A stretch of 64,000 nucleotides of DNA from Elusimicrobiota bacterium (GCA_044221725.1 JBGAON010000002.1:32001-96000); one strand, 5' to 3'; positions 1 to 19,371 are shown, counted from the first letter of the stretch. The notes: generated by a model not told the origin, from the letters alone. Numbers and translations: made by a program.

Positions 1-105
1 GGTATGCCGCGTTTTATTTCTTCTTGGCTCGAAAGAGCTCAAAACAAGTCAGCAGGGACCAAATCGAGAGCTGACAAAGGATCCGCGACATGGCCGACGG
101 AATAA
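1..105 (+). CDS. C-terminal end of a probable phage replication initiator protein (5' partial)
   Basis: Frame 1 reads GMPRFISSWLERAQNK...WPTE*. The RFIxSWLxRxQ pattern resembles the C-termini of phage replication proteins, and it overlaps the helicase start. Confidence 0.5.
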   Translation, partial: GMPRFISSWLERAQNKSAGTKSRADKGSATWPTE

Positions 106-2133: not shown

Positions 2134-2296
2134 GCAAGCAGCAGTATTTTTGGGTGTATCGATTTTCACTCTGTACGGATGGACCAGCGCCGGGAAAATT
2201 CCTCACAGGAAAGTTGGGAGCCTCCTGCGGTTCGACGAAAACGAGCTCGTTCAGTGGACGAAGTTGCACGGCCAACTGGCAGTAAAAATAGCTTGA
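2102..2296 (+). CDS. Excisionase-like helix-turn-helix protein
   Basis: LLTAKQAAVFLGVS..TLY.W...GKIPH.KVGSLLRF; GGAGG RBS before ATG 2102. Confidence 0.85.
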   Translation: MSEQKPLLTAKQAAVFLGVSIFTLYGWTSAGKIPHRKVGSLLRFDENELVQWTKLHGQLAVKIA

Positions 2297-2305
2297 TCGA
2301 TCGAG

Positions 2306-2325
2306 ATGATCTGATCAATGATCGG
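2306..2325 (-). repeat. Inverted copy of the 20-bp tandem motif (candidate integrase arm-type site)
   Basis: Reverse complement CCGATCATTGATCAGATCAT matches 12675-12694 at 16/20. Confidence 0.45.
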
Positions 2326-2372
2326 TAGGTTTAGCTGTGTTTATTTAAGTCTATCGATTGTGAGGTGAATTT

Positions 2373-3485: not shown

Positions 3486-3496
3486 CGGAGGAAATT

Positions 3497-4036
3497 ATGA
3501 TCATAGCTGCAGATGTTGGGTGTGAAAAATGTAACTCAAAAATAACGCATTTGAAGGATATTCAAATCGAGCAATTTGATTCGGTCCGGCTTTCGATTTG
3601 TGAATGCCTAGATTATTTTAATGCAGAGCTGAGCACCAAGGATCCGCGAGAGAAGGAAATCGAAATGCTACTGCGCGGAGAAGGTATTGCAAGAGAACGA
3701 ATTCCAGACGTTATTTTTAAGATTGGGCTTGTGATGACTGATGATGGATTGGGATTTGGCGACCTTACACTACATATTGGTATTGGAACAATAGAGCCGG
3801 TGTGGAATGCCTTGATTCAGAGATGGCCTCTACCAGAGTTTCCAGACGAAAATCCAGAAAACATCCAATCTGATTGCAAGGTCGATTTGGATTTATTGAT
3901 GTTGGAAGTATTTAGAAATCAAAAGAAAAAATATTTAAAAAATGAAGATATCAACCGGATGTTTCGGTGGCCATTAAAATTATTGGCTGCGGCGGGAAGA
4001 ATCCATCTTGGCAAGGAATGCTGGCGTCTCAAATAG
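3497..4036 (+). CDS. Hypothetical protein with N-terminal Cys motifs
   Basis: GGAGG RBS; CEKC and CEC; lies between int and terL. Confidence 0.65.
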   Translation: MIIAADVGCEKCNSKITHLKDIQIEQFDSVRLSICECLDYFNAELSTKDPREKEIEMLLRGEGIARERIPDVIFKIGLVMTDDGLGFGDLTLHIGIGTIEPVWNALIQRWPLPEFPDENPENIQSDCKVDLDLLMLEVFRNQKKKYLKNEDINRMFRWPLKLLAAAGRIHLGKECWRLK

Positions 4037-4040
4037 TTCT

Positions 4041-5495
4041 ATGGCCGCTGGAAAAATCGAAGAGCTACCGGATTTAAGTGCATTCCAAAATAAGATCAGA
4101 AATGATCCAGCTTTCTTCTTACGTGAATGTTTGGGCCTCCATCCATGGGAAATGGAAATAAAAATCATCGAATCAGTTCGGGACAACCCCAAAACTCTTG
4201 TAGCGGGCTGCGTATCTTCCGGAAAAACCCATGCAACCGCTGGGTTGGTGTTTTGGTGGCTCATGGCTTATGCGCCAATGGCACGTATATTTTGTCTCGC
4301 CCCAACTGAACGCCAACTCAAAATTAACCTCTGGCGTGAAATTCCACGGATGCACAGCGCGTCCAAAGTCAAATTAGGCGGAGAAATGATGCCGCTCTCT
4401 CTCCAGTACCGACTCGGCGATGACTGGTACGCGTTGGGGTTTAGCCCACAGGATGAAATGGGTGTGTTCGGAATTCACGGCCCTCATGATTTGATTGTCA
4501 TTGATGATGCTCAGGGCTTGAAACAGGAAATTTGGGAGGCATTGGAGAATGCCATGGCCGGGGGCACCACACGGCTCCTGGCATCATGCAATCCCGTCGT
4601 GACCAGCGGCGAAATTTACGAGGCCATGACATCGAAGCGAGGAAAATACAATGTCATCCGAATTCCCGCAGGAATCACACCCAATGTTAAAGAAGGAAAA
4701 ATAATTATTCCTGGAATGATTACTAAGGAAACCGTTGACCGCTGGATTCAGGAATATGGAGAGGATTCTGATTTTGTCAGAACGAAAGTGAAAGCCCTTC
4801 TTCCAAAACAGGAACCAGACACGCTTATTCCATTGGATTGGATCGAGGCAGCAATGGAGCGGGAGATCGAAGTTTCAAACGAGTATCCGATTTTGGGAGT
4901 TGATGTCGCTCGATTTGGTGACGATAGAACAGTAATTTTCCCAGTCCACGGGCTTAAAGCAATTGATCCAGTCATACTTCAAGGCGCCGATACCATGGCA
5001 GTGGCAGGAAGAGTCAAATTTGAAATGGAAAACCATAAAGCTGGTGCAGCATTTGTTGATGTCATTGGAATTGGGTCTGGGGTGTGTGATCGGTTAGCGG
5101 AGCAAGGCGTGGTTGTTTATCCTGTGAATGTCGCATCCAAAGCGCGGAACGAAAAGAAGTTCGTTAATTTACGTAGTGAAGTATGGTGGGCTGCACGAGA
5201 AGCATTGGACCCCAAAAACCAAAACATCTATTCCTTGCCCAATAACAAGCACTTGATGGCGGAATTGGCGGCATCCAAGTTTATGGTCGATTCTTCTGGT
5301 CGCATTCGGGTTGAACCCAAAGATGAGATGAAAAAGCGCCTCGGTCACTCACCTGACTTGGCTGATGCGTTCTGCTTGGCGATGTATGGCCGGTTCGTTT
5401 TACAGCTTCAGGCGTATTACGCTTCGGACCTTGAGGATGGAGATTCTTTTATTGATTTGGATGGAGTGTCACCGTCCTCAATTGTTTTTTCTTAG
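4041..5495 (+). CDS. Phage terminase large subunit
   Basis: Walker A SSGKT, Walker B IVIDDA, nuclease motifs GVDVARFGDD and SPDLADA. The start could also be 4008. Confidence 0.9.
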   Translation: MAAGKIEELPDLSAFQNKIRNDPAFFLRECLGLHPWEMEIKIIESVRDNPKTLVAGCVSSGKTHATAGLVFWWLMAYAPMARIFCLAPTERQLKINLWREIPRMHSASKVKLGGEMMPLSLQYRLGDDWYALGFSPQDEMGVFGIHGPHDLIVIDDAQGLKQEIWEALENAMAGGTTRLLASCNPVVTSGEIYEAMTSKRGKYNVIRIPAGITPNVKEGKIIIPGMITKETVDRWIQEYGEDSDFVRTKVKALLPKQEPDTLIPLDWIEAAMEREIEVSNEYPILGVDVARFGDDRTVIFPVHGLKAIDPVILQGADTMAVAGRVKFEMENHKAGAAFVDVIGIGSGVCDRLAEQGVVVYPVNVASKARNEKKFVNLRSEVWWAAREALDPKNQNIYSLPNNKHLMAELAASKFMVDSSGRIRVEPKDEMKKRLGHSPDLADAFCLAMYGRFVLQLQAYYASDLEDGDSFIDLDGVSPSSIVFS

Positions 5496-5498
5496 ACG

Positions 5499-5517
5499 GG
5501 TAGCTCTCGAAGCTACC
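5499..5517 (+). repeat. tRNA-fMet-like fragment / inverted repeat at the phage-cargo junction
   Basis: GGTAGCTCTCGAAGCT vs tRNA GGTAGCTCGCGAGGCT (14/16). Also reads as a GGTAGC-N7-GCTACC inverted repeat. Confidence 0.4.
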
Positions 5518-5711
5518 ACGCAAACAAGTAGAGTCTTCCAGAAACAATTGGAATTTAGCGACTTTGAGAATTTAACAGAATCCTGTTACAAGGATGTGTT
5601 CGTTTTTCTGATCAACTCTCGAACATTGATAACCTTGGGTAATTCATACTTTCAATTCTAAAATCCAGGATAACTCTTGATTGTGATGTGGTTTCCTGCA
5701 AAAATAACCCA

Positions 5712-5969
5712 ATGAAGAAATGGATTCCCTTATTCTTGTTCTTGGTGTTCGCGCATGACATCGCCATCGATGCCTTCGACGCTGATTGCCAAGATAAAGC
5801 GGGAGCTGTGTGTCACACTTGCGTTTGTCAGACCCACTTCGTCAATCCAGTTATTGGCACTCAGCAAAAACTATCGGTTTCAACTGAGTACGCTCCTGCT
5901 CCCGAACCTATTTTAGCCTTCAAAGATTTCTCCAAGTCTCTTTTCCGCCCTCCTAAAGCTCTCGCCTAA
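5712..5969 (+). CDS. Secreted Cys-rich leader protein (DUF2946/CzcI-like) with C-terminal FRPP
   Basis: Signal-like N-terminus, CHTCVC motif, ends SLFRPPKALA; directly upstream of the efflux operon. Confidence 0.7.
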   Translation: MKKWIPLFLFLVFAHDIAIDAFDADCQDKAGAVCHTCVCQTHFVNPVIGTQQKLSVSTEYAPAPEPILAFKDFSKSLFRPPKALA

Positions 5970-6060
5970 TCGACCGTCACGGCGGTCCATCCCAACAATA
6001 GTTTGAAATTCAGCCCATCGATATTTGTCGATGGAGAAGTGTTTTATCTTAGGAGTTTCC

Positions 6061-7326
6061 ATGCGAAATCTATTTGCACGTCATGTCATATTTTTTCTGT
6101 CGTTGTTTTTGTTCATAGTTACGTTTATTAGTGCAGCCGAGCCGGTTTACACGATTCCCCAAGTGGTATCGATGGCTCTGAAAGAGAACCCTCTTCTTAT
6201 TTCTGAGTCGGCGCGTGTAGAGGAGAAACGATTGGCTGGAAGCCAATCAAGAAACTGGTCTGGCCCGTCTGTGGAGGTGGCCGCCGGTCAGCGTAAAGAC
6301 GAAAGCAATTCCGGATCCCGTTTCGAGGCGGCTATTTCCCAACCATTGCCGTTGTCAGGAAAGCAGGGCCTTCGTGGTCGTTTGCTTGATTTGGAATCCG
6401 AGTCTTGGAAAGCCCAGCGAGCCGCATCGGAGGCGATGATCACCTTGAACGTCGTTCGCCTTTCCTTTGAATATGCGATCAACCGGCGTCTGGCGAATTT
6501 TGTCGTTATGCGTCAAAAGCGGTTTTCACTCATCAAGTCCTATATGGAAGGCCGCGTGTTTCCATCTCCTCAAAAGAAAGCAGAAAGCCGCATTGTCCAA
6601 AATCGCATGAATACCCTCCTGTCTGCAGCGTTGCAATCCCAGGCAAGTTATCGAGCCTCATTTGAAGACCTTCGCGTCTACGCCCCCATGGAATCGGGAA
6701 TCTATCCTGAAATAAATATTCCATGGTATGCAGGGTCAAAAAATCTCGACGCTTCCGATGGATTGGAAAAAGCTCTCAAGAATAATCCCGATCTCCGTTT
6801 AAGAGAATTATCGGTCAAAAGCACTGAGATAGAAAAAGCACTGGCCTCAAAAGAACGATGGCCGGACACTGCATTAATCGCCTCCTATGAAGAAGGAAAA
6901 GCAACGGAGAAGGAAACAAACACGGGGGTAGGGATCGGGCTTGAATTCCCCTATTGGAATGGAAACCGGTCTGGATTAAAAAGCTTAGAGAAAAAGAAGA
7001 TTGCAGAACAAGGATTACGTGATCTTCAGGAGCGGCAAATAAAAGCTGATTTGCCTCGGGCGCTGATTGAGTTCGAGGCCGCTCGAAGCGCAGTAAAAGA
7101 ATACCCCGAATCGTTACTCAATGAAATCGAAACGAATCTCCGTGGGTCGGAGGAAGGATTTCGAAAAGGCCAGGTGGATCTTCTGACATTTTTGGAATTA
7201 GACGATTCCTCGGCTGAAACCTATCGCCACATCCTTGAAGCACAGATGAATTATGTGACGAAAGCAACAGAGCTTTTACGCTTAACCGGTGAGCAAGACA
7301 TCCTCGCCCGCCTTGAGTCCTTGTAA
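6061..7326 (+). CDS. TolC-family outer membrane efflux protein (CzcC-like)
   Basis: Signal peptide, AL..NP repeats, FRKGQVDLLTFLE; AGGAG RBS before ATG 6061. Confidence 0.85.
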   Translation: MRNLFARHVIFFLSLFLFIVTFISAAEPVYTIPQVVSMALKENPLLISESARVEEKRLAGSQSRNWSGPSVEVAAGQRKDESNSGSRFEAAISQPLPLSGKQGLRGRLLDLESESWKAQRAASEAMITLNVVRLSFEYAINRRLANFVVMRQKRFSLIKSYMEGRVFPSPQKKAESRIVQNRMNTLLSAALQSQASYRASFEDLRVYAPMESGIYPEINIPWYAGSKNLDASDGLEKALKNNPDLRLRELSVKSTEIEKALASKERWPDTALIASYEEGKATEKETNTGVGIGLEFPYWNGNRSGLKSLEKKKIAEQGLRDLQERQIKADLPRALIEFEAARSAVKEYPESLLNEIETNLRGSEEGFRKGQVDLLTFLELDDSSAETYRHILEAQMNYVTKATELLRLTGEQDILARLESL

Positions 7327-7336
7327 GGAGACCCAA

Positions 7337-10300
7337 ATGAAAACACGAATTTTGGAATGGACGTTAAAAAATAGAATCGGAGTTACATTGTTTTTTGCGT
7401 TGGGAGCGGGAATTGGTCTTTATGCTCTCACCACGTTACCGGTAGATGCAGTGCCAGACATTACACCAGTGCAAGTCATGGTGAACACAAAAACCAAAGC
7501 GCTCGATCCTGAGCAAGCCGAGAAAACCGTTTCCTTCCCTATCGAAACTGAGATGAGTGGGATTGCGCACGTCAAAGAAGTCCGATCTCTTTCTAAGTAT
7601 GGGCTTTCTCAGGTCGTCATAAATTTTGAGGACGGCACAAATATTTACTGGGCGAGACAGCAAGTATCGGAACGGCTTCAAAGCGTTCAGGGTGAGTTGC
7701 CTGAAGGGTTATCGCCAGAGTTGGCTCCGATAACAACGGGACTGGGAGAAGTGGTGATGTATGTGGTTCAAGCAAAACCTGGGACCATTTTGGCGGAAAA
7801 GCCGGAAAAAGAACGGCTCCTATATCTCCGAACCATTCAGGATTTCGTTATTGCTCCTACCCTTAAAAGATCGGTTAAGAACGTGGCAGAAGTAGATTCA
7901 ACCGGTGGGTATAAAAAGGAAATTCACATCGAGATTTTCCCGAAAAAATTGGAAACACATGGCTTGAGCATTGAACAAGTGGTTGAACGCCTGGAAGGAC
8001 TTGGCGAGAATTTTGGAGGAGGTTACATTCAGCCTGGTGGTAAACAAGTGATTGTACGAACGTCAGGACGGCTCCATGATTTGAAAAGTATTGGCACTCT
8101 TTCCGTTAAATTAGACGTGAGCGGCAGGCCTATTCCACTTTCGAGCGTGGCGGAAATTCGTGAGGATTATTCTCAGCGAATGGGCGGCGCGACGTATGAC
8201 GGTAAAGAAACGGTCTTGGGAACCGTGCTGATGTTAAGCGGCGCAAACTCAAGACAAGTGGCGATAGATACCGAGCAAGCACTTAAGGATGTCGCTCTGC
8301 CTGCCGACGTAGAGACGAAGCTTCTCTACAGTCGAAGTTATCTCGTTAACGCGACCCTAAAAACCGTGGCGAAGAATTTGGCGGAAGGTGCCGCTCTTGT
8401 GATCGTGATTCTCCTTTTAATTTTGGGGAATTTCCGAGCGGCGGTGTTTGTGTCTTTGGCCATTCCATTGTCGATGTTATTTGGCGTGATAGGAATGAAA
8501 TGGTTGGGAATCTCAGCGAGTCTTATGAGTTTAGGTGCTGTAGATTTTGGACTTCTCGTGGATGGCGCAGTGGTCATGATTGAAAACGCTCTTCGTCGTT
8601 TGGAAGAGCATCAAGGGCCGCTTGATCATGAAAAGAGATTCAAACTGATTCTGGACTCGGCTTCCGAGGTGATCAAGCCAGTTGGTCTTGGCCTTCTCAT
8701 TATCATGCTTGTATATGTTCCGATCCTTTCGTTGGAAGGAATCGAAGGGAAGCTTTATCATCCGATGGCCGTCACGGTGCTGATGGCGCTCGGTGCATCG
8801 CTTCTCGTTGCCGTATTCCTCATGCCGGTTCTCGCTTACTTTTTCTTGCGTCCTCCCAAAGGCGGCGGAAAGGAAGAGAAATTTGTTTATCGATCCTTAA
8901 AAAACCTCTATCAGCCCGTTTTGGATCAGAGTTTGGCTCGGCCTTGGCTGGCATTAGTCCCTTCGATAATTCTTATCGTTGTTGCACTATTTATCTTTCA
9001 ACGACTGGGAGGAGATTTCATGCCGCCGCTTGATGAAGGCGACATGGTTATCAATCTAACGAGAGAGTCGGATATTGGTGTTGACGCATCTCTTGAAATG
9101 CAAGGAAAGAGTGATGCCGTGATCAAACAATTCAGCGAGGTAGAGCACGTTTTCTCGCGCATCGGAACGCCAGAATCAGCGACCGATCCGATGGGTGTAC
9201 ATCTTGCGGATACGTTCGTGATTCTTAAGAAGAACCATTCTCTATGGAAGAAAAATTCCGATGGAAAAGTTCGATCGAAAAAAGAACTTTACGATGCCAT
9301 TAAAGATGCGTTGGAAAAAGAAATCACTGGTCAAGATGTGAATGAAAACCAACCAATCGAAATGCGATTCAGTGAAATTATGGAAGGAAGCCGAGCGGAT
9401 GTCACATTAAGGATCTATGGGAAAGATCTTCCTGTCCTCCTTGGGTTGCTTGAGAAGTCGATCTCCATCCTCAAAGATGTTCCTGGAACAGAAGCAGTCG
9501 AGATGGACGCTTTGACGGCGCTCCGAAAAAGTCCTGTGTTAAGTGCTGAGCCGAATTACACGGCTATTGCTCGATATGGACTTGATGTTCATCATGTGAA
9601 CCGGCTCTTGGAAGCCGCGATGGGTGGAAAGGAAGTGGGAAGCTTCTACGAGCATCAATGGCGGTTTCCTATCGTTCTCCGAGTTGAAGAGGAAAGCCGT
9701 GAGAATATTGAAACCATTAAGTCTCTTCCAGTTGGATTGCCGGATGGAGGCACCATTCCGCTTCACAAAGTAGCCAACTTTGAACGGACGGAGGAAGTAA
9801 CCACCATCGCTCACGATTACTCACAGCGGTATGCCGCAGTGGCCGTGTTTCTTTCGGGGCGGGACATTCAAAGTTATGTAAAGGAAGCACGTAAGGTAAT
9901 TGGAGATAAATTGGATCTTCCCGAAGGGTACAGCATCAGTTGGGGTGGTCAATTTAAAAATCTCGAACGTGCTCGAAAACGCTTGGCTCTTATTGTGCCG
10001 CTGGTATTAATTGGGATACTTGTCATTCTCTGGCGTGCGTTCGGAAGTTTTTCACAGGCGATGCTAGTTTACACTGCTGTTCCGCTCGCGATGACTGGCG
10101 GCGTTTTCGCATTGGCGATGAGAGGCATTCCCTTGAGTGTTTCGGCATCCGTTGGATTTATCGCTCTAATGGGGATTGCGATTTTAAATAGCATGGTGCT
10201 TGTCAGCTTTTTCAATCAACTCCGATTAAAGGGTATGACCGCGCATCAATCCGCTAGAGAGGGAGCGTTAACACGATTGCGGCCTGTGGCGATGACGGCG

Positions 10301-10471
10301 CTTGTCGCCAGCCTTGGGTTTGTGCCGATGGCTTTGAATACCGGCATCGGTGCCGAAGTTCAACGCCCGTTGGCAACGGTTGTAATTGGCGGACTTGTAA
10401 CATCAACTTTGTTGACACTCATTCTAGTCCCTGCGCTTTATAAATTGTTTGGAGGAAAACAGCATGAATAA
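7337..10471 (+). CDS. CusA/CzcA heavy-metal RND efflux permease
   Basis: PVDAVPDIT, SLGAVDFGLLVDGAVVMIEN, RLRPVAMTALVASLGFVPMA. Confidence 0.95.
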   Translation: MKTRILEWTLKNRIGVTLFFALGAGIGLYALTTLPVDAVPDITPVQVMVNTKTKALDPEQAEKTVSFPIETEMSGIAHVKEVRSLSKYGLSQVVINFEDGTNIYWARQQVSERLQSVQGELPEGLSPELAPITTGLGEVVMYVVQAKPGTILAEKPEKERLLYLRTIQDFVIAPTLKRSVKNVAEVDSTGGYKKEIHIEIFPKKLETHGLSIEQVVERLEGLGENFGGGYIQPGGKQVIVRTSGRLHDLKSIGTLSVKLDVSGRPIPLSSVAEIREDYSQRMGGATYDGKETVLGTVLMLSGANSRQVAIDTEQALKDVALPADVETKLLYSRSYLVNATLKTVAKNLAEGAALVIVILLLILGNFRAAVFVSLAIPLSMLFGVIGMKWLGISASLMSLGAVDFGLLVDGAVVMIENALRRLEEHQGPLDHEKRFKLILDSASEVIKPVGLGLLIIMLVYVPILSLEGIEGKLYHPMAVTVLMALGASLLVAVFLMPVLAYFFLRPPKGGGKEEKFVYRSLKNLYQPVLDQSLARPWLALVPSIILIVVALFIFQRLGGDFMPPLDEGDMVINLTRESDIGVDASLEMQGKSDAVIKQFSEVEHVFSRIGTPESATDPMGVHLADTFVILKKNHSLWKKNSDGKVRSKKELYDAIKDALEKEITGQDVNENQPIEMRFSEIMEGSRADVTLRIYGKDLPVLLGLLEKSISILKDVPGTEAVEMDALTALRKSPVLSAEPNYTAIARYGLDVHHVNRLLEAAMGGKEVGSFYEHQWRFPIVLRVEEESRENIETIKSLPVGLPDGGTIPLHKVANFERTEEVTTIAHDYSQRYAAVAVFLSGRDIQSYVKEARKVIGDKLDLPEGYSISWGGQFKNLERARKRLALIVPLVLIGILVILWRAFGSFSQAMLVYTAVPLAMTGGVFALAMRGIPLSVSASVGFIALMGIAILNSMVLVSFFNQLRLKGMTAHQSAREGALTRLRPVAMTALVASLGFVPMALNTGIGAEVQRPLATVVIGGLVTSTLLTLILVPALYKLFGGKQHE

Positions 10472-10889
10472 TTGGATTCTTTATGCAGTAGGAGCCGCCG
10501 TTCTTTATGGGCTCCATCAAGTCTTCACAAAATTAGCATCACCCCACATCGGCGATGGTGTTGGAGGTTTTATTGTGGAGGCGACGGCGGCACTTACTAT
10601 TGCCGTTTATTTAATTGGGCTAAAGCTTGCTGGGAAGTGGGATCAGGGAATTTCAACACAAGGAATTGCATATTCGGCGTTGACCGGCCTTTGCGTTGGG
10701 GTCGGGACCATTTTCTTTTTCCTGCTTTTTCAAAAGGGCGGGCCGTTGTCCGCAGTTCCCATGGTTCTGGCCGGAGGAGCAGCGATCATGGCCATTATCG
10801 GTATTGTCTTTTTTAAAGAACCAGTTAGCATGTTTCGGGTTGCCGGAATTGGTTTTGCCGTGGTTGGTTTGGTTCTTTTACGTTATTAA
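10464..10889 (+). CDS. EamA/DMT-family small transporter
   Basis: About 140 aa, five hydrophobic segments, FFKEPVS...GI motif. Confidence 0.75.
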   Translation: MNNWILYAVGAAVLYGLHQVFTKLASPHIGDGVGGFIVEATAALTIAVYLIGLKLAGKWDQGISTQGIAYSALTGLCVGVGTIFFFLLFQKGGPLSAVPMVLAGGAAIMAIIGIVFFKEPVSMFRVAGIGFAVVGLVLLRY

Positions 10890-10894
10890 ATCCG

Positions 10895-11125
10895 ATGGAT
10901 AATCTCACTCTTTTTGGCCTATTCGCGGTTTCATCCATGCTTATATGTTATGCGCTTGAGAAGCGCAGTCCATGGTTTATCCTGGGATTCGCCGTTGCCT
11001 GTGCGTTGGGGTCGATTTATGGATTTCTTCAGGGGGCCTGGCCGTTTGGAGTCGTAGAAGCGATATGGTCGGTCGTTGCAATGAAACGATGGTGGTCGAC
11101 TAAGAGGACTGGTACTGATCAGTAA
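10895..11125 (+). CDS. Small membrane protein of unknown function
   Basis: 76 aa hydrophobic ORF (GAWPFGVVEAIW). Its stop codon lies inside the junction motif. Confidence 0.7.
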   Translation: MDNLTLFGLFAVSSMLICYALEKRSPWFILGFAVACALGSIYGFLQGAWPFGVVEAIWSVVAMKRWWSTKRTGTDQ

Positions 11126-11236
11126 TCCGATTATTGTCGAAATACGGTACTGAAATTCCCATCGAAAACCTCTCGAATTTCGCTACAACCAATGCGTGGG
11201 GTAAATCAGCTCGGTAGCACTCAAAGTCACTAAGCT
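11115..11236 (+). repeat. Degenerate copy of the tRNA-fMet upstream region, promoter and 5' half
   Basis: 11117-11236 aligns without gaps to 12677-12796 at offset 1560, about 76/120 identical by hand count, with the first 14 nt exact. Confidence 0.75.
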
Positions 11237-11250
11237 ATTATTTTATCGCG

Positions 11251-11709
11251 CTAGCAGCATCCGCTGCCGGACTTAATCGGTATCGCACCAGCCTTAGGTT
11301 GCCCACACGCCTCTTTGGCCAAGCAATCAGTATGTTTGTACCCAAGTTGCAGAACGACTTCTGCCTCCGTCACCTTGGCTCCAGTTACCGGATATTGGGA
11401 AATAACACCGCGCTCATACTCTACTTCGAGCGGAAGCTGATCCACTGGGATGATGCTCTCGGATAGCTTAAGGATTTTGCCGAGCTTGGCAGAGGAGAGT
11501 CTGTGATCGACGTCGGAACCGAGCCAAGTTTGAAGAACGCATGCCGTAGTCGATCGAGCCTTTCCGCCGCAATCGATAAACGTTTTCGTCACTTGCCCAA
11601 CTTCGGTTACATGGAATGATTCGGGGACACTTGTGCCATCGTTGAGTTGAATCCGTAACGCTCGATCTGGAATTTCTGAAAGGAGTATCTTCAATTCATT
11701 TAATTGCAT
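11251..11709 (-). CDS. DUF6428-like protein (ars/metal-associated)
   Basis: FHVTEVG...FIDCGG, KHTDCLAKEAC, C-terminal GCC. Confidence 0.8.
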   Translation of the reverse strand: MQLNELKILLSEIPDRALRIQLNDGTSVPESFHVTEVGQVTKTFIDCGGKARSTTACVLQTWLGSDVDHRLSSAKLGKILKLSESIIPVDQLPLEVEYERGVISQYPVTGAKVTEAEVVLQLGYKHTDCLAKEACGQPKAGAIPIKSGSGCC

Positions 11710-11711
11710 GG

Positions 11712-12170
11712 TTATTTGCCTCCCACCGGAACTCCGCTACTGATCATCTTGATGAATTCGATGACCTTCGCCTCAATTTCCTTGCGCACTCCGATTGTGC
11801 GGGTCAATTTTTCCTCGTGAGTTCCTTGGAAGCTCGATGGGTCCGCAAAACTCCAATGGATGCGTTTCGTGACCCCTGGGAATATAGGGCATCGCTCGGC
11901 GCTTGTTTCATCGCATACCGTGATGACATAGTGAAGCATCCTGCCTTCCTTAAACAAATCAAACACCCTTTTGGTTGGGTTCTTAGAAATATCGATCCCT
12001 ATATCGGCCATGGCCTCGATAGCGAGAGGATTTAGCTTACCTGGCTCAAGGCCAGCGCTTTCCACTTCAAAATCATCACCGCCAAATTTCTTAAGTAGCG
12101 CCTCTGCCATTTGGCTTCGCGCAGAGTTGTGAATACAGACAAACAGAACCTTCGTTTTCTTTTTTTGCAT
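11712..12170 (-). CDS. arsC: Arsenate reductase, LMW-PTPase family
   Basis: FVCIHNSARSQMAE, ITVCD...CPIFPG, HWSFADP; GGAGGAG RBS before ATG 12170. Confidence 0.9.
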   Translation of the reverse strand: MQKKKTKVLFVCIHNSARSQMAEALLKKFGGDDFEVESAGLEPGKLNPLAIEAMADIGIDISKNPTKRVFDLFKEGRMLHYVITVCDETSAERCPIFPGVTKRIHWSFADPSSFQGTHEEKLTRTIGVRKEIEAKVIEFIKMISSGVPVGGK

Positions 12171-12204
12171 AGCTCCTCCTAAATTAACCGCCATCGACAC
12201 CGTC

Positions 12205-12224
12205 ATATTCGCTTACACAGATAT
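12205..12224. promoter_or_regulatory. Second, imperfect ArsR-type operator upstream of arsC
   Basis: ATATTCG-N6-CAGATAT resembles the box at 12589-12608. Confidence 0.5.
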
Positions 12225-12242
12225 ACTCATCAAAAAAAGGGG

Positions 12243-12590
12243 TTAGCAGCATCCGAACTTCCGGCAATCCAAACCTTTTAAAATCTTTTTGTCCTTCGCG
12301 AAGATCGGCGCATCTTCCAAACAGTCGCCGATGCAGGCCAACAGACCCTTATGAAAGGTTCCAGTGGGTTTGGCCAATGAGTAGTAAATCCATTGGCCTT
12401 CCCGCGTGGTTTCAACCAGTCCGTGCCGGCGTAGATAGGCCAGGTGACGTGAAATTTTAGGCTGGGGTGCCTTAATGACGGACATGATGTCGCAGACACA
12501 AAGCTGGCCGTTTGAGAGTAGACTCAAAATACGGAGGCGAGTCTCATCAGCGAAAGCTTTTAGAAGGTTGTTTGGGGAATCGTTGCTCAT
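12243..12590 (-). CDS. arsR: ArsR/SmtB family metalloregulator
   Basis: ADETRLRIL, LCVCD, QPKISRHLAYLR, C-terminal C...GCC. Confidence 0.92.
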   Translation of the reverse strand: MSNDSPNNLLKAFADETRLRILSLLSNGQLCVCDIMSVIKAPQPKISRHLAYLRRHGLVETTREGQWIYYSLAKPTGTFHKGLLACIGDCLEDAPIFAKDKKILKGLDCRKFGCC

Positions 12591-12608
12591 ATTCGTTTAG
12601 GCGAATAT
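12589..12608. promoter_or_regulatory. ArsR-type operator
   Basis: Palindrome ATATTCG-N6-CGAATAT overlapping the arsR start codon. Confidence 0.7.
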
Positions 12609-12674
12609 ACAAATCCAACATTAAAGAGGCAAGATCGGTTATTTGGCTACCATTAGCTGCTTTTCGAGGCATTC

Positions 12675-12694
12675 CCGATCAGTAATCCGATCAG
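12675..12694 (+). repeat. 20-bp tandem motif CCGATCAG-TAAT-CCGATCAG
   Basis: Direct repeat of an 8-mer; related copies at 11115, 18108 and, inverted, at 2306. Confidence 0.7.
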
Positions 12695-12720
12695 TCGCAA
12701 AATCACCTTCGAAAAACCTC

Positions 12721-12749
12721 CTCGAAAGTGACTCAAAATAAATTACAAT
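12721..12749 (+). promoter_or_regulatory. Probable sigma70 promoter of the tRNA
   Basis: CTCGAA-N17-TACAAT, 5 nt before the tRNA 5' end. Confidence 0.5.
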
Positions 12750-12754
12750 CAGTC

Positions 12755-12831
<77 letters not shown>

Positions 12832-12842
12832 TTTCCAAAAGG

Positions 12843-13010
12843 GTCCTGCCCGAGCCTGGCGGTAACAGAAAGTACCGATCACATGGGTTACACTATTTTC
12901 GCAGCGAAGGGATACGGTAGCGGCTCGAACCTTCTGCTCGTTTCATCAAAGTAGCCCAGATCATACTCCATAAAGCTGACCAACCAGATTCTGTCCCGAA
13001 CTTCGGGTGC
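12843..13010 (-). mobile_element. IS481-family remnant (transposase C-terminus plus degenerate end)
   Basis: EVRDRIWLVSFMEYDLGYFD...EPLPYPF resembles IS481 transposase tails. The minus strand then reads TGTAACCCATGT...TGTTACC, like IS481 end repeats. Confidence 0.7.
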
Positions 13011-13125
13011 GGACGTTGTGTATTGAACTCTTCGATATGTTCTCTCGAAACCTCGAAGGAGTTTGCCGTTGACGTTGTATCCAACCCGACTCTTATCCGA
13101 CATAAGAGCTGGTATAATTAGCCCA

Positions 13126-13713
13126 ATGGAGAAAATAAAAGATTCCTATTCACGATCACCCAAAAAAGAGAAAGCGGCTTCGCCTCTCTCCAAAGTTGTG
13201 GTCGATAACCATAATCGGTTCCTTTCTTATCTCGCCAGCCGCGTTGAAAGCCGAGAAGCTGCAGAAGAAATCCTTCAGGCCGCTTACCTAAAAGGGCTCG
13301 AACGAGAGGGAACGTTAAAAGATACCGAAAAGATCACAGCTTGGTTTTTCCGTGTTCTTAAGAACGCTTTGACCGATTCCTATCGCCACAAAGCGGCAGA
13401 GAAGCGCGCCATAGAAAGGTACGGGTCCGGAACGGAACGAAATCAAATCCAAAGAGACCACGATCTAGAGAAAAATGTTTGCAAATGTATAAACCGAGTC
13501 ATGAAAACATTGAAACCGGAATACGCAGATGTACTTCAGAAAGCCGAAGTAGAAGATAAAAGCATAAAAGACCTCGCCTTCAAATCAGGAACATCACCCA
13601 CCAATATCAGTGTCCGATTACATCGTGCTCGTGCCAGCCTTAAAGAAAAGGTCCTTGAGACTTGCGGCGCCTGCGTGGACCACGGCTGCCTCAACTGCAC
13701 CTGTAAACACTAG
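13126..13713 (+). CDS. ECF sigma factor with Cys-rich C-terminus
   Basis: AEEILQ, WFFRVLKN, VRLHRARASLK; CKC and CGACVDHGCLNCTC. Confidence 0.88.
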   Translation: MEKIKDSYSRSPKKEKAASPLSKVVVDNHNRFLSYLASRVESREAAEEILQAAYLKGLEREGTLKDTEKITAWFFRVLKNALTDSYRHKAAEKRAIERYGSGTERNQIQRDHDLEKNVCKCINRVMKTLKPEYADVLQKAEVEDKSIKDLAFKSGTSPTNISVRLHRARASLKEKVLETCGACVDHGCLNCTCKH

Positions 13714-13714
13714 C

Positions 13715-13740
13715 TGTAAGGTTTTTGAATCTCATACGTC
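13715..13740 (+). promoter_or_regulatory. Candidate ECF-type promoter for copA
   Basis: TGTAAG-N16-CGTC immediately after the sigma gene. Confidence 0.55.
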
Positions 13741-13781
13741 TCTATTGGTGAAAGGCCAAAAAGGGCCGCCAAGGAGAATAT

Positions 13782-15998
13782 ATGAACCACAGTGAAACAA
13801 TCGAAAGACACGTAGTAAAAGAGGATCCCCGGTACGGTTCGTGCTGCGGATCACATCACCATAAGGAGAGCTCTGAATTGTTCGGAAACAAAGGAGCAAT
13901 CTATACCTGCCCAATGCATCCGGAGGTCCGCCAGAACGGTCCTGGTTCATGCCCAAAATGCGGCATGGCCCTGGAACCGCTGGACGGGACGACCTCAACC
14001 GCCGATGAAAGCTCCAATTCAGAATACCGAAGCATGTTGCACCGCTTCTGGGCAAGCCTCGTGCTGACGGTCCCTGTTATTGTGACAGCGATGGCTGAGA
14101 TGATTCCGCGCTTTGAGCATGTCGCGTCTTCAACGGGTGTTTCCTGGTTACAAATGGCGCTGACAACACCCGTGGTCTTGTGGTGCGGCTTGCCGTTTTT
14201 TCAACGAGGTTGGAGTTCGATTAAAAACCGAAGCCTAAACATGTTCACACTAATCGCCTTGGGTATTTCCACAGCTTTCGGGTTTAGCGTTGCGGCTATA
14301 TTTTTTCCAAACGTGTTTCCAGAATCCCTCCATGTGCACGGACGAGTTCCAGTTTATTTTGAGGCGGCAGCAGTCATCACGACACTTGTTCTTCTTGGAC
14401 AAGTCCTCGAGCTTCGTGCGCGAAGCAATACAAGCAGTGCGATTAAGGCTTTGCTGCAACTTGCACCCACGACAGCCCGCGTGGTGCGGAATGATAAAGA
14501 AGAGGATATTGATCTAGCCCATATTCAAGTTGGAGACGTATTGCGTGTTCGGCCCGGTGAGAAAGTGCCGGCGGACGGAAAAATCTCTGACGGCCAAAGC
14601 TTCGTCGATGAATCGATGTTGACCGGCGAATCAATACCAGTTGAAAAGAAATCTGGTGACAAAATCACTGGTGGAACGATTAATCAGACTGGCTCTTTTC
14701 TGATGCGAGCGGAGCGCGTTGGGAATGAAACTCTTCTGGCACAAATCGTGAAAATGGTTTCAGAAGCGCAGAGAACAAAAGCTCCTATTCAGCATCTAGC
14801 GGATGTTGTTTCTGGTTATTTTGTACCGATCGTGATCTTGGTGGCCGTCATCACCGCAGTGGTATGGGCGATGTTTGGGCCCGAACCCCGACTTGCTTAT
14901 GCATTAGTAAATGCGATTGCTGTTGTGATTATCGCGTGCCCATGTGCGTTGGGTCTCGCAACTCCGATTTCAATTATGGTCGGCACCGGCCGCGGTGCAC
15001 AGGCCGGCATCCTGATCAAGAACGCAGAGGCGTTGGAAAGACTTGAGAAGGTGAATACGCTCGTTGTCGATAAAACGGGAACGTTAACGGAAGGAAAACC
15101 AAGACTCGTATCTATTGAACCAAATTCTCCGTTCAGTGAGTCGGAGCTGTTGAAACTAACAGCCAGTGTTGAGCAAGGGAGCGAACATCCGTTGGCCCGC
15201 GCCATCGTTCAGGCGGCCAGAGAACGGACCGTGACACTGGCACCAGTATCGGGATTCCATTCTGTGACTGGAAAGGGCGTCATGGGCGAAGTGGAGAGCC
15301 GAAAAGTTCACATCGGAAGCGGAATCCTGTCTCACGTAGCCAATCGGAGCAATGCACAAAAGATTGCATCACTACGAAAGCAGGGACAAACAGTTATCGG
15401 TGTCGCGGTCGATGGAAAATTTGCTGGCCTTATCGGTGTCGCCGACAAGATCAAAGAATCCACTTTCGAGGCATTAGACACATTACGGAAATCGGATATT
15501 CGCATCATGATGCTAACGGGTGATAACCGCGCAACAGCGGAAGCCGTCGCTCACCAAATCGGTATCAGTGAAATTGAAGCCGAAGTGCTTCCGCAAGACA
15601 AAGCGAGTGTCATCAAGAAGCTGCAATCTCAAGGCCGAGTGGTGGCGATGGCTGGTGATGGTGTTAACGACGCTCCGGCGTTGGCTCAGGCTGATGTTGG
15701 AATTGCGATGGGTTCGGGAACTGACGTCGCTATTCAAAGCGCAGATGTCACGTTGGTTAAGGGTGATTTGCGTGGCATTGCCCGTGCACGGAAATTAAGC
15801 GAAGCGACAATGAGGAGCATAAGACAGAACTTATTCTTCGCTTTTATCTACAACGTTTTAGGTGTTCCTGTGGCGGCGGGTGTGCTTTATCCGTTTACGG
15901 GTCTGTTGCTCAGCCCGATGATAGCAGCCGCCGCTATGACTTTTAGCTCTGTCTCTGTAATCGCAAACGCACTGCGGCTGCGCAAAATTTCACTTTAA
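13782..15998 (+). CDS. copA: Copper-translocating P1B-type ATPase
   Basis: [40 protein letters not shown] and MxxSS motifs. Confidence 0.95.
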
Positions 15999-16010
15999 GG
16001 AAGAACAATC

Positions 16011-17309
16011 ATGAAAAAATTGTTTGCTCAAGTTATCGCTTTAGGTCTCACAAGCTCAATCGTCTATGGACAAGACCATAGCGAACATCACCAGCACCAA
16101 GGTCATGAGATGGGAAGCATATCCATGAGCGGCATGTACGGGTCTTATCCAATGACGAGAGAGGCATCCGGCACCGCCTGGGTTCCGGATTCAAGTCCTC
16201 ATGAAGGTTTACACTACATGGCTGGTCCATGGATGTTGATGCTTCATGGATTTGCAACTCAGGTTTACGACCACCAAGGAGGACCACGAGGCGATAACAA
16301 GAATTTCTTAGAGAGCATGTTTATGATGATGGCACAGCGGGAACTTGGTCCCGGCACGCTTGGATTTCGCACCATGCTTTCATTGGACCCAGCCATGGGA
16401 GAGAATGGCTATCCGTTGCTCTTTCAGACGGGTGAAACGGCTGATGGCGAGCATCATCTTATCGACCGACAGCATCCGCATGATCTGTTTATGGAACTCG
16501 CCCTTTCGTACAATTTGAAGTTAAGCGATACGAATTCAGTTTTCGTTTACGGCGGGTTGCCCGGTGAACCCGCATTGGGTCCAGCAACCTTTATGCACCG
16601 CTTCTCTGGGCTAGACAACCCAGAAGCACCAATCACGCATCATTGGTTGGATTCGACTCACATTACCTTCGGCGTGTTGACGCTGGGTTACGTGTATGAC
16701 AAAGCAAAATTAGAGGTCTCAGGTTTTAAGGGACGGGAACCAGATGAGAACCGGTGGAACATAGAATCGCCACGGATCGACTCTTATTCATACCGCTTCA
16801 CCTGGAATCCCTATCGCGATTGGTCAGGGCAAGTGAGCTACGGAAACATACATAGCCCGGAACAACTGGAGCCAGACGTTGATACGGAGAGGGTCACCGC
16901 ATCGATCGCCTATAACCGGTCCTTCGGAAAAAATAATTGGCAGACCACTGCGGCGTGGGGTCAGAACAAGAATGAAGACCATCATTTCGAAGCGCATTCC
17001 GAACGACTTGATGCCTATTTGGTGGAGTCCGCGCTGTCAGTCAACCGAAAACACACGTTTTTCGGCCGAGCCGAGACGGCGGAGAAGAACGAACTCTTTA
17101 ACGAAGAAGAGCCGCGTGCTGGAAATGTTTACGACGTAGGAAAGCTAAGCCTGGGATATATCTACGATTTTCTGAACCTTAGCTTTGGCGAGATCGGCGT
17201 CGGTGGCCTTGGAAGTGTTTACAGCGTGCCATCCGCAATTCGAGACGTGTACGGCGACTCGCCCACCTCTTACATGTTGTTTGTACGAGCGAAATTGGGA
17301 GCTGGATAA
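16011..17309 (+). CDS. His/Met-rich secreted protein, probable outer-membrane beta-barrel
   Basis: Signal peptide, HSEHHQHQGHEM, amphipathic strand pattern; 12 nt after copA. Confidence 0.7.
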   Translation: MKKLFAQVIALGLTSSIVYGQDHSEHHQHQGHEMGSISMSGMYGSYPMTREASGTAWVPDSSPHEGLHYMAGPWMLMLHGFATQVYDHQGGPRGDNKNFLESMFMMMAQRELGPGTLGFRTMLSLDPAMGENGYPLLFQTGETADGEHHLIDRQHPHDLFMELALSYNLKLSDTNSVFVYGGLPGEPALGPATFMHRFSGLDNPEAPITHHWLDSTHITFGVLTLGYVYDKAKLEVSGFKGREPDENRWNIESPRIDSYSYRFTWNPYRDWSGQVSYGNIHSPEQLEPDVDTERVTASIAYNRSFGKNNWQTTAAWGQNKNEDHHFEAHSERLDAYLVESALSVNRKHTFFGRAETAEKNELFNEEEPRAGNVYDVGKLSLGYIYDFLNLSFGEIGVGGLGSVYSVPSAIRDVYGDSPTSYMLFVRAKLGAG

Positions 17310-17380
17310 ATTATCAATATGATCTCGGTCATAGTTGTGGTTGGCGAGTAGTGGTAACTATAGAGTAAAGGGAGAAATCC

Positions 17381-17707
17381 ATGGAAAGGAAACTAATCGG
17401 ATTCGCGATCCTCTTCGGCGCAGTAATGTATGCGATTCCTGTTCAAGCCTGTCCGTCGTCGGAATGTTTCGAGCAGGCAAGCAAGCCGAGTTGCTGCGAT
17501 GCCGTTCGCGATTCCAATTCCGCTACCATTCCCGGCCTACTGCCGGACACCTTATCCCTAAGAAATATCGCCCCTCCGGTTCAGGTCGATTTTATCAAGC
17601 CGCCACTAATCACTACTCGCGTGCGTCGCGACTTCGATTTACTTAATTCTTTTTTTTTGGAACGCCAGCACTATACGAGTAGGAGTCCGCCCACAACTCC
17701 TGCATGA
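17381..17707 (+). CDS. Secreted Cys-rich leader protein with C-terminal RSPP
   Basis: GGAG RBS, signal peptide, CPSSEC and CC, ends TSRSPPTTPA. Confidence 0.65.
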   Translation: MERKLIGFAILFGAVMYAIPVQACPSSECFEQASKPSCCDAVRDSNSATIPGLLPDTLSLRNIAPPVQVDFIKPPLITTRVRRDFDLLNSFFLERQHYTSRSPPTTPA

Positions 17708-17770
17708 GTACTGTGTCACTTGCAGAAAATGAAATGGATCGAAACCCACGACTTATAAAGGAGAATTGAT

Positions 17771-18028
17771 ATGAAAAAGTTTATGCTTGTCACTCTTGGG
17801 TCCGCAATGTTGATCGCGGCTCCCGTGTTTGCGGACACCATGACTCATAGTAACGGCATGTGCAAAAAGCACTGCAACCTCATGGACTTGGAGGAAAAGG
17901 TTAAGACGTTAAAGTCCCACGCCTCGACCGCGGATAAAATCGCCACAAAAGAGCATCTCCAAAAGGACATTGAGGCGTATGAAAAGAAGCTACAAGAGAT
18001 AAAGAAAGAGCTGGACGCAACGAAATAA
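17771..18028 (+). CDS. Small periplasmic helical protein, possible metal binder
   Basis: AAGGAG RBS, signal peptide, MTH..MCKKHC followed by a coiled-coil-like segment. Confidence 0.7.
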   Translation: MKKFMLVTLGSAMLIAAPVFADTMTHSNGMCKKHCNLMDLEEKVKTLKSHASTADKIATKEHLQKDIEAYEKKLQEIKKELDATK

Positions 18029-18040
18029 GAGTATTGACTA

Positions 18041-18078
18041 AGCCGGGCATTGGGGGGCATCCCTGGTGCCCGGTTTTT
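18041..18078 (+). terminator. Rho-independent terminator
   Basis: GCCGGGCATTGGGG / CCCTGGTGCCCGGT stem followed by a T-tract. Confidence 0.8.
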
Positions 18079-18107
18079 GTTGCCCTTCGTTCACGTTAGG
18101 TATGAAG

Positions 18108-18127
18108 CCGATTAATAATCCGATCAA
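18108..18127 (+). repeat. Copy of the 20-bp tandem motif at the island's right edge
   Basis: CCGATTAATAATCCGATCAA, 17/20 to 12675-12694. Confidence 0.6.
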
Positions 18128-18386
18128 TGTGGTTACCATTCAGTCGTTTTGAATAGCGGTACCTGTTCGGTTTTTAAACGACGAGCAGTGTGAGCTTTGT
18201 TTCAAAGTTCTCAAGCGGCTTGAAGCTGCCGGAATTTTGCGTCAAATTGTTTCCAAGAAAACATCGAAGTGCTTGATCAGTTGAGAGGGAAAGCACGCCA
18301 TGGTGTTCAAGGCGCCCGTTATCAAGAGACCGTTTCTGGAGACGAGATATTTCGGCAAAGCGGTGATATCTGTAATGTCCAGCGAA

Positions 18387-19280
18387 CTATTGACCACGAG
18401 CAGAAGCCCCACGATTCGACAAAGGAACGTGGGGTTTTTTTTGTCGTTGGGCGGTGACCTTTGTGAATTCAGCGCCGAAATAAAGGATTTGCGCGGAATA
18501 GTACAACCACAAAAGCAAAACGAGCACGGACCCTGCTGTTCCGTACGATGATCCGACAGTTCCTTTGCCAAGATAAATCCCGAGAACGGATTTCCCAATG
18601 GTGAACAGCACCGAAGTGAACACCGCGCCTTCCCATACATCGCTCCACCGCACGTGTGTGTTCGGCAGAAGCTTAAAGATCGCAGCAAACAAAAAAGTAA
18701 TCACGGTGAGCGACACGAGCATATTGATCGCTTGCAGAAGCCATTCGGGGAGAGGCAAAAGGTAGCCGAAATAGCGTCCCATTGTGGCGAGTAGGGTACT
18801 AATGACCAACGAAACCAAAAGTAAAAAGCCGATTCCGAGGACCATGCCGAAAGAAAGCAGTTTATCTTTGACCACGTTCATAAAACCCGAAACCTGCGGG
18901 GCGTTCCAAATTTTGTTCAGCGTGAATTGAAGGTCGTCCATAACGGCGGAAGCCCCGAGCAGCAATGTGCCAAAACCGATGATGGTTGCGAGCGTGCCCG
19001 ACGCCGGTTTTTTTGCCGCTTGCAGCATGCTTTGAATGTCGCGCGCAGTTTGGTCGCCCATAGTGGCACGGAGTTCGTTGAAAATGCGGTCTCTCGTTTC
19101 GCTCATGCCAAAAACGAGCCCGGCGATGGCGATCGTGAGCAGCAAGAGTGGCGCCAGCGAGAAAGCCGTGTAATAAGCCAGCGATGCGCCGAGGCGCGTG
19201 CCGCCGTCGTTTTTCCATTCATTGAATGTCTCTTTCAGCAAGGTGAAGATGTTCGAGGCATAGGAGCGCAAGGTCCGCAT
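18387..19280 (-). CDS. YihY/BrkB family membrane protein
   Basis: ASLAYYTAFSLAPLL, LNKIW, SSYGTAGS, WLYYSAQILYFGAE. Confidence 0.9.
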   Translation of the reverse strand: MRTLRSYASNIFTLLKETFNEWKNDGGTRLGASLAYYTAFSLAPLLLLTIAIAGLVFGMSETRDRIFNELRATMGDQTARDIQSMLQAAKKPASGTLATIIGFGTLLLGASAVMDDLQFTLNKIWNAPQVSGFMNVVKDKLLSFGMVLGIGFLLLVSLVISTLLATMGRYFGYLLPLPEWLLQAINMLVSLTVITFLFAAIFKLLPNTHVRWSDVWEGAVFTSVLFTIGKSVLGIYLGKGTVGSSYGTAGSVLVLLLWLYYSAQILYFGAEFTKVTAQRQKKPHVPLSNRGASARGQ

Positions 19281-19371
19281 ACGTCAGCTACGAACGAAAA
19301 TGAACAAAAGTTTCGTTCGTAAAATAATTGTTCGATGCCGACGTTCGACGATCAATCGAACGAGGTTCGCG

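Follow-up and report, generated by a model that had tools for sequence, protein, structure and literature searches.

The stretch of DNA analysed here, hereafter called the window, comprises 64,000 nucleotides from an uncultured Elusimicrobiota bacterium (GCA_044221725.1, designated G000) and corresponds to G000:C4:32001-96000 in an assembly of 5 long contigs; positions given without a prefix are window positions. Between 5499 and 18127 it contains blocks of czc, ars and copper genes arranged around a gene for the initiator tRNA (tRNA-fMet), preceded by a phage-like module that encodes a tyrosine integrase. A first-pass annotation had proposed that these blocks are cassettes, each of which supplies a new promoter and tRNA 5' half and pushes the previous copy upstream, and that the array behaves like an integron driven in trans by the integrase at 2373. 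We compared the locus with a sample of 251 genomes of the class, one per species. Based on this comparison, we consider it probable that the array is a tandem-accretion hotspot at tRNA-fMet, built by one clade of lambda-like tyrosine integrases and composed of satellite-like elements and leftovers resembling cis-mobilizable elements (CIMEs). No paper on this integrase clade or on Elusimicrobiota tRNA-fMet islands was found in the open-access literature.

Gene content and tRNA copies of the island

The only Rfam match within window positions 1-24000 is a full tRNA-fMet on the plus strand at 12755-12831, in which the core halves correspond to nt 19-24 and nt 32-37 and the recombination overlap probably to nt 25-31 (12779-12785). 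Sequence comparison revealed a second full copy under the host promoter, 5.1 kb to the left of the window (G000:C4:26881-26957). To its left lie addA and two further genes, located between addA and the tRNA, which we take to be AI-2E-like and VOC-like, respectively. The two tRNA copies match at 76 of 77 bases and differ at nt 67 as well as in both flanks. They are co-oriented and bound the element as an 81-bp direct repeat (C4:26880-26960 and 12754-12834). The composite between them measures 17.9 kb and the whole island 23.6 kb, and the rest of the genome 2.8 Mb. Because the second copy lies to the left of the window, the phage module, which the annotation had rightly recognised but placed first in the order, sits inside the array. 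In G001, G003, G004, G006 and G009, no contig was found that joins the two flanks across an empty site.

The module is the right part (1-5495, plus strand) of a 10.5-kb satellite-like element that starts outside the window, at the host-promoted tRNA-fMet and a downstream arm motif which follows this tRNA after 163 bp (C4:27120). Its genes encode a DUF4379 endonuclease-like protein, a MerR protein and a replication initiator. Inside the window follow, all on the plus strand, a DnaB-like helicase (90-926), a primase zinc finger (923-1567), an MT-A70 methylase (1564-2133), an excisionase-like helix-turn-helix protein (xis, 2102-2296; PF12728 and the excisionase family phrog_66), the integrase of 370 residues (2373-3485), an open reading frame (3497-4036) and a terminase large subunit (4008-5495). 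When 11 module proteins were scanned with PHROGs, the integrase, excisionase, replication initiator, helicase, primase and terminase large subunit were recognised, and no capsid, tail or other structural gene was found among these 11. With an integrase, an excisionase, replication genes and a packaging gene, and without structural genes among the proteins scanned, the gene set fits satellites of the phage-inducible chromosomal island (PICI) type or tycheposons. The GC content of the element is 0.455, compared to 0.52 in the flanks. Directly past the downstream arm, the DUF4379 gene (L001:13168-16131 of G000:C4) encodes a 987-residue protein with nine DUF4379 zinc fingers and endonuclease-like matches, and a short homologous piece is found at the same place in G002. 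Sequencing run X19 contains a variant of the xis-int junction (2260-2699) that differs at 20 of 440 bases, while terminase and czc pieces close by show no difference.

The metal-gene blocks and the insertion sequence (IS) remnant named by the annotation are all present. The czc unit (5712-11125, plus strand) comprises a small reading frame at its start, a czcC-like OEP gene (6061-7326), a CusA/CzcA RND pump gene (7337-10471), an EamA gene (10464-10889) and a small membrane reading frame (10895-11125); it contains neither czcB nor an integrase gene. In 6061-10471 czcA follows directly after czcC with no membrane-fusion gene between them, and the same holds for 7 of 7 homologous loci. The ars unit (11251-12590, minus strand) consists of arsR (12243-12590), an arsC-like gene (11712-12206) and a DUF6428 gene (11251-11709), and has no efflux pump and, again as annotated, no integrase. 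In the G004 homologue the genes stand in this order too, but arsC and arsR are about 690 bases further apart; the window block lacks an arsenite pump. At the 3' end of the tRNA, on the minus strand, a stretch with an IS end (12835-13109) includes a C-terminal transposase remnant (12892-13109) that is 65% identical over 37 residues to an annotated transposase. This remnant, which presumably belongs to the IS481 family, has no Pfam or NCBIfam match. The copper cluster (13126-18028, plus strand) encodes an ECF sigma factor, a P1B ATPase (copA, 13782-15998) and three unnamed reading frames. Further right, beyond an arm at 18108, a stretch of intermediate GC content (0.506; 18387-21930) encodes YihY and a Mg-type P-ATPase, and may be the cargo of an older unit whose right end was lost.

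Attachment sites and the integrase clade

The arm motif consists of two 7-bp direct repeats with a 12-bp period (12675-12693). The annotation had reported copies at 11115, 12675 and 18108, and all three were recovered. Arm and core sites were located by mismatch counts against single window stretches, and more diverged sites may be missed. With at most two mismatches over its 19 nt, the arm has four matches in the island and none in the remaining 2.8 Mb; the motif is not common genome-wide. If only the 14 repeat positions are considered with at most one mismatch, 4 of 15 matches in the genome lie inside the island. Across 34 stretches the arm has 69 matches, and 22 of them are followed by a core-like 24-mer after 91-99 bp; with the offset shifted, this holds for 0 of the 69. 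Many of the remaining arm matches are found 110-220 bp past a core or next to the start of an integrase gene. None of the 11 off-island arm matches in G000 has a core; one of them, at G000:C4:396575 and far from the island, is a third perfect match (14/14). Comparison shows attachment (att) sites in which a tandem arm precedes a core in tRNA-fMet by about 95 bp and a further arm follows this core after 110-220 bp, with the core halves on either side of nt 25-31.

The placement of the overlap at nt 25-31, the junction of the D-stem and the anticodon stem, is our inference from fragment endpoints and from the variable 7-mer between conserved core halves. Among 23 hand-picked tRNA 5' fragments, for 10 of which the reference tRNA was taken from a relative, 12 end at nt 31-33, 7 at nt 37-42 (the anticodon class) and 4 are decayed by nt 20-24. 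In nine cores without both tRNA ends, two of which were found via an arm seeded from G000, nt 18-23 and nt 32 are invariant, nt 24 and nt 33 are conserved in 8 of 9, and the bases of nt 25-31 match the tRNA in only 2-5 of 9. These nine cores have nine different spacers, of which eight are non-tRNA and one is the retained tRNA spacer. Junctions that contain the tRNA mostly keep its exact spacer. For arm-bearing sites, the fragment endpoints and the core conservation led us to reject a crossover in the anticodon loop as well as an overlap with its centre at nt 24; 12 of the 23 fragments stop at nt 31-33, before the loop of the classical subsite (nt 33-39) is complete. Within int, 13 bp (3406-3418) match the tRNA 3' end; this stretch was also dropped as an att site, as another exact copy lies on C2 and the match is not found in relatives. 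The binding of the arms by the integrase and the exact position of the cut are likewise predicted from sequence. The varied 7-nt spacers between conserved core halves hint at recombination that would tolerate overlap mismatches. The integrases of Tn916 and Tn1549 are homology-tolerant enzymes of the heterobivalent type.

The integrase itself matches PF00589, has an N-terminal domain of three strands plus a helix, and its catalytic residues are intact: R197, K222, H277, R280 and Y312 are invariant across 56 aligned sequences. Its structure model aligns over residues 1-328 to lambda Int (1z1b; Z 19.3, rmsd 12.4, 310 aligned). The N-terminal domain alone gives Z values of 4.3 for lambda, 3.7 for Tn916 and 3.6 for HPI, and unrelated MurC chains score higher (5.4). 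With 61.6 bits against a cut-off of 265 for TIGR02249, the protein is not an IntI. Its closest relatives among the 251 genomes (47-54% identity over the matched part) are located at tRNA-fMet or at an arm plus core site. About 30 proteins share at least 43% identity with it. A single-sequence search of genome contigs gave no match, an alignment search gave 9 integrase loci (8 of 9 titled Elusimicrobia; overlaps with known loci were counted once), and viral contigs yielded only distant integrases (4 loci, 25-26%). An arm lies near all 10 integrases that share a sequence motif in strands 2-3, and none lies near 4 others (3 distinct) that lack it, although these proteins are kin and not independent. 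The sequence of the N-terminal domain thus appears to covary with the arm motif. Together with the loci of the relatives, this supports the annotation's view that the motif would be the arm-type site of the 2373 integrase clade, and that the clade targets tRNA-fMet. An inverted arm between xis and int (2307-2325, minus strand), which occupies the same position in G007, G071, G056, L114 and L117, is a possible autoregulatory site. A degenerate arm at the end of the G000 integrase was not used, since with 6 of 19 mismatches it is no better than in three relatives. In G025, G071 and G056, Leu replaces the second catalytic His of the integrase, and 19 residues are inserted before the H-x-x-R motif.

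The four sites of the array differ considerably in their state. The intact one is at 12675-12754 (plus strand), where an upstream arm and an element-borne promoter, whose -10 box ends at 12749, stand before the full tRNA, just as annotated; this order of arm, promoter and full tRNA recurs in G002, G025, G032, G044, G061, G071 and G081. A decayed junction lies at 11115-11228 (plus strand), with an arm (11115-11133), a promoter-like stretch, tRNA nt 1-24 (11195-11218), a diverged spacer and the right core half. The degenerate copy that the annotation had proposed here stands out clearly from shuffled sequence (11115-11216, z 9.7, reached by 0 of 500 shuffles; z 6.7 without the arm). The tRNA matches at 18 of 24 bases and only 14 of the next 42, so that the similarity ends after nt 24. 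This junction has no downstream arm, a gene ends about 25 bp past its core, and it has a counterpart in G007:C76. The 5499 site, which had been taken for a decayed tRNA-like fragment, is instead an inverted core (5499-5517, minus strand). It forms a perfect 6-bp/7-bp/6-bp palindrome with a non-tRNA spacer, 3 bp past the terminase stop, and its minus-strand arm (5597-5615) lies at the same distance as at 12675. Inverted sites homologous to it follow the module in both G007 and G071. An arm plus non-tRNA core after the integrase is found in direct orientation in 8 loci and inverted in 4 (G000, G007, G071 and G056). Finally, 18108-18156 (plus strand) is a downstream-type arm with a conserved 30-bp flank, which normally lies about 160 bp past the tRNA 3' end. 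No promoter or tRNA 5' part follows it (z 0.45). The 30 bases after it match the tRNA-following arms of the genus-mates G002 and G001 at 21-22 positions, compared to 4-11 of 30 for 10 other arms. Judging from this flank, the 18108 arm is separated from its tRNA by the transposase remnant and the copper genes, and the copper cluster is best understood as having been inserted behind the tRNA, ahead of the downstream arm, rather than as the cassette that had been annotated. In G001, a tRNA-fMet with a T-arm insertion of about 13 nt (G001:C35 around 530-555, L022) is preceded by an upstream arm region that is degraded and followed by a downstream arm that is perfect.

Integrase-less units and the origin of the array

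Units without an integrase are also found at tRNA-fMet in relatives, where they measure 1.5-6 kb and restore a promoter and a tRNA 5' half. In G032, a single-contig genome (98% complete), the order is arm, promoter, tRNA nt 1-33, arm, Sel1 gene, arm, promoter and full tRNA. The unit is thus a single gene bounded by arms, 1.49 kb in length, with three perfect (14/14) arms around it. In G002, four arms surround an integrase-less unit of 6.1 kb, and two junctions bear a tRNA. No clade integrase was found in G032 (best profile match 116 bits) or in G002. Integrase-less units with unrelated cargo were observed in G002, G025 and G081. The cargo at tRNA-fMet varies and comprises one to few genes, such as Sel1, Fic, restriction-modification (RM) systems, MarC/rhodanese and DsrE; Fic-family genes are frequent at these junctions (L095, L100, L098, L109, L094 and L096). 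C-terminal integrase stubs in G076, G038, G042 and G025 indicate that decay does yield small units. The tRNA is repaired from its 5' side in G025, G032 and L116, and from its 3' side in G000 and in G007, which has the same left junction as G000.

Small units are also stacked at tRNA-fMet without arms, in L028 (G019:C66 6338-12639), L094 and L096. G019 has three tRNA 5' halves ending at nt 39-41, and G185 and G122 have units of 1.6-1.75 kb. From these arm-less arrays it follows that at least two integrase types stack units at this tRNA. A large serine recombinase gene ends just past tRNA-fMet in G032 (L092:10976-12664, confirmed by Pfam) and in G122 (L094:11803-13524, with a similar N-terminus). 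In other genomes tRNA-fMet is split near nt 36 by inserts of 200-970 bp, some with an open reading frame (G003:C113 4420-4619; G024:C10 350868-351520; G081, L095:13525-13784; G066, L104, L105 and L106), and these inserts look like anticodon-loop introns.

A cut one third into the tRNA gene leaves an element two ways of restoring it. In 5' repair the upstream arm would bring a promoter and nt 1-24, and in 3' repair the downstream arm would bring the 3' part. The czc unit would have entered the tRNA first and the ars unit next, both by the 5'-restoring route, which is supported by the upstream copy at 11115 being decayed and that at 12675 intact. At the host-promoter end, the satellite-like element with the integrase would have integrated by the 3' route, which gave rise to a second full tRNA, and a separately arrived, IS-associated copper cluster would have split off the downstream arm now at 18108. 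The annotated mechanism, in which incoming units give a promoter and a 5' half and displace the old copy, therefore fits the 11115/12675 pair and the G032 example. It does not extend to a one-way conveyor of four cassettes, since the integrase element lies inside the array and restored the tRNA at the host promoter from the 3' side, and since homologues of the ars and czc blocks are not bounded by att sites. None of the three observations that the annotation had named as speaking against it (other breakpoints or a fixed gene order in relatives, a motif common genome-wide, a different integrase target) was made outright.

The czc and ars units are probably CIME-like leftovers or captured chromosomal genes. 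Like CIMEs, they have no integrase or transfer genes of their own. The two direct att ends of a CIME are found in the G032 and G002 units but not here, because the left end of the ars unit is a decayed core with no arm and the left site of the czc unit is inverted. The inversion at 5499 also means that the czc unit cannot be excised together with 11115. Both units would be mobile only when the clade integrase is present, most simply within the 17.9-kb composite. Any excision from the array, and any action of the integrase in trans on these units, we infer. Neither a joint at 5505, 11220 or 18108 nor the circular or skipping junctions suggested by the annotation were seen in contigs of four runs mapped to positions 1-20000. 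One of these runs, X1, may be the source sample, and the other three are independent and patchy (depth 0-5). As contigs drop rare forms and depth is patchy, the missing joints are no evidence of absence.

Several observations do not sit well with tandem accretion followed by decay. The perfect arms around the integrase-less units of G032 and G002 are hard to reconcile with pure decay, and the conserved core halves with differing spacers would imply selection rather than drift. In addition, the inverted site past the integrase in four loci is not explained by simple tandem integration, and the absence of a left arm from three tRNA-proximal units (the ars unit of G000, a type I RM unit of G025 and an RM unit of G081) may be design rather than loss. 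We therefore regard a dedicated, integron-like cassette system as possible, though doubtful. Units made of cargo, one arm, a promoter, a tRNA 5' part and a core would move as circles, with the clade integrase acting in trans. Mismatched 7-bp overlaps would be tolerated as by IntDOT, any core could be used in either orientation, and the arm plus core past the integrase would be an attI-like capture site. The nine spacers with eight non-tRNA cases, the position of arm and non-tRNA core past the integrase in both orientations, the units of one to few genes with differing cargo, and the presence of units in two genomes with no clade integrase all favour such a system. A precedent is provided by IntDOT, which recombines mismatched overlaps, with overlap identity setting the orientation (PMC2817482). 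However, among about 250 genomes no unit recurred with identical ends: G081 and G056 both carry Fic cargo, but it is no more than about 70% alike and the ends are not shared, and G032 and G076 share ends and not cargo. No arm was found at 11 ars homologue loci (flanks of about 1.5 kb) or at 7 czc homologue loci (8-15 kb), and copA-czcC-czcA are contiguous in G015 and G061. Moreover, most tRNA junctions keep the tRNA spacer, as homology-dependent recombination predicts, and the integrase is not an IntI. Only tentatively can a form of gene capture in Elusimicrobiota be proposed: an arm-dependent integrase borne by a satellite would cut the initiator tRNA gene where D-stem and anticodon stem meet, full overlap identity not being required. 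It would shuffle small cassettes that have no recombinase, many of them single-armed and equipped with a tRNA promoter and 5' part of their own, and the additional arm and core past its gene would serve as an attI-like site open to both orientations.

At the other extreme, the czc and ars boundaries could be inert scars of deletion, IS activity and recombination between tRNA copies, with only the integrase module or the 17.9-kb block still mobile. At the 11115 junction, 6 of 24 tRNA bases and 2 arm bases have indeed been lost, as have the spacer and any downstream arm, and the 18108 arm lies 5.3 kb from its core. We nevertheless consider this improbable, as the 5499 core has homologues in other genomes and forms a perfect palindrome whose arm lies at the conserved distance, and the 12675 site is intact. 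It is very improbable that the second tRNA copy is an assembly artefact, created when a 17.9-kb extrachromosomal circle was joined via the tRNA repeat. Run X1 has a single contig of 17,856 bp for this stretch, reaching from the left tRNA as far as 12783 and bounded by tRNA at both ends, which short-read contigs cannot distinguish from a circle. However, its depth of 24.1 equals that of the flank (25.7), the tRNA copies differ at nt 67 and in both flanks, the genome is assembled in 5 long contigs, the left junction recurs in G007, and two junctions that bear a tRNA are present in G002 as well.

Relation to known systems

Tandem accretion at a tRNA hotspot by one integrase clade, the reading that we favour, can be compared with described systems. 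The tRNA islands catalogued by Islander share with the array a tyrosine integrase, a tRNA target, a gene restored by the element and tandem arrays; the catalogue lists 159 of 3919 islands with a 5' fragment, and subsites in the anticodon loop, the T loop and at the T/acceptor junction (PMC4383910). The present islands differ from this in the overlap at nt 25-31, in the use of both 5' and 3' repair by one clade, and in the many units that have no integrase and lie below the 2-kb limit of Islander. Early-cut, 5'-side islands have already been reported in Klebsiella upstream of arg2, where att spans the acceptor 5' strand, the D-stem as well as the D-loop sublocation (bioRxiv 10.1101/2020.11.02.365908). 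Tandem accretion with CIMEs of the ICESt1/ICESt3 type has been described as well, including integrase-less, att-bounded units in tandem with an intact element and chimeric internal att sites (PMC5704250). There the helper is an integrative and conjugative or integrative and mobilizable element, whereas here it is phage-satellite-like; in addition, some units supply a promoter and a tRNA 5' part, several are single-armed, and one internal site is inverted.

Tycheposons and PICI-like satellites resemble the integrase-bearing element in size (about 10 kb), tRNA target, integrase, excisionase, replication genes and terminase, and their islands also grow by repeated integration and decay and carry metal or nutrient cargo (bioRxiv 10.1101/2020.12.28.424599). 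The host and the integrase clade are different here, the element encodes a terminase large subunit and an MT-A70 methylase, and growth apparently occurs at both ends of the array. IntDOT likewise has arm sites and core halves, between which lies a 7-bp overlap that varies from site to site, and orientation can follow the overlap (PMC2817482); in our case the tolerance is suggested by spacer diversity, the tRNA target is preferred, and most junctions keep the spacer. Similarity to integrons is found in the small recombinase-free units beside one recombinase and in a possible integrase-proximal site. Unlike in integrons, there is no IntI, the sites are duplex arms and cores, the cargo consists of operons with their own promoters in both orientations, and a tRNA serves as anchor. 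The array is a real, well-defined att array and a variant of the familiar stacked, tRNA-anchored island, and the integron-like reading is doubtful.

The array supplies parts that tRNA-anchored cassette arrays usually lack, namely a cognate integrase and excisionase, a defined arm motif whose sequence covaries with that of the N-terminal domain, and an overlap that has been mapped. Islands of this kind escape search programs that require an integrase within the island or a length of at least 2 kb. If the spacer diversity truly reflects tolerance of overlap mismatches, the enzyme would be one of only a few integrases with this property. The question whether small integrase-less tRNA units are live cassettes or relics becomes directly testable here, and the position of the cut lets a single integrase clade repair an essential single-copy tRNA from either side.

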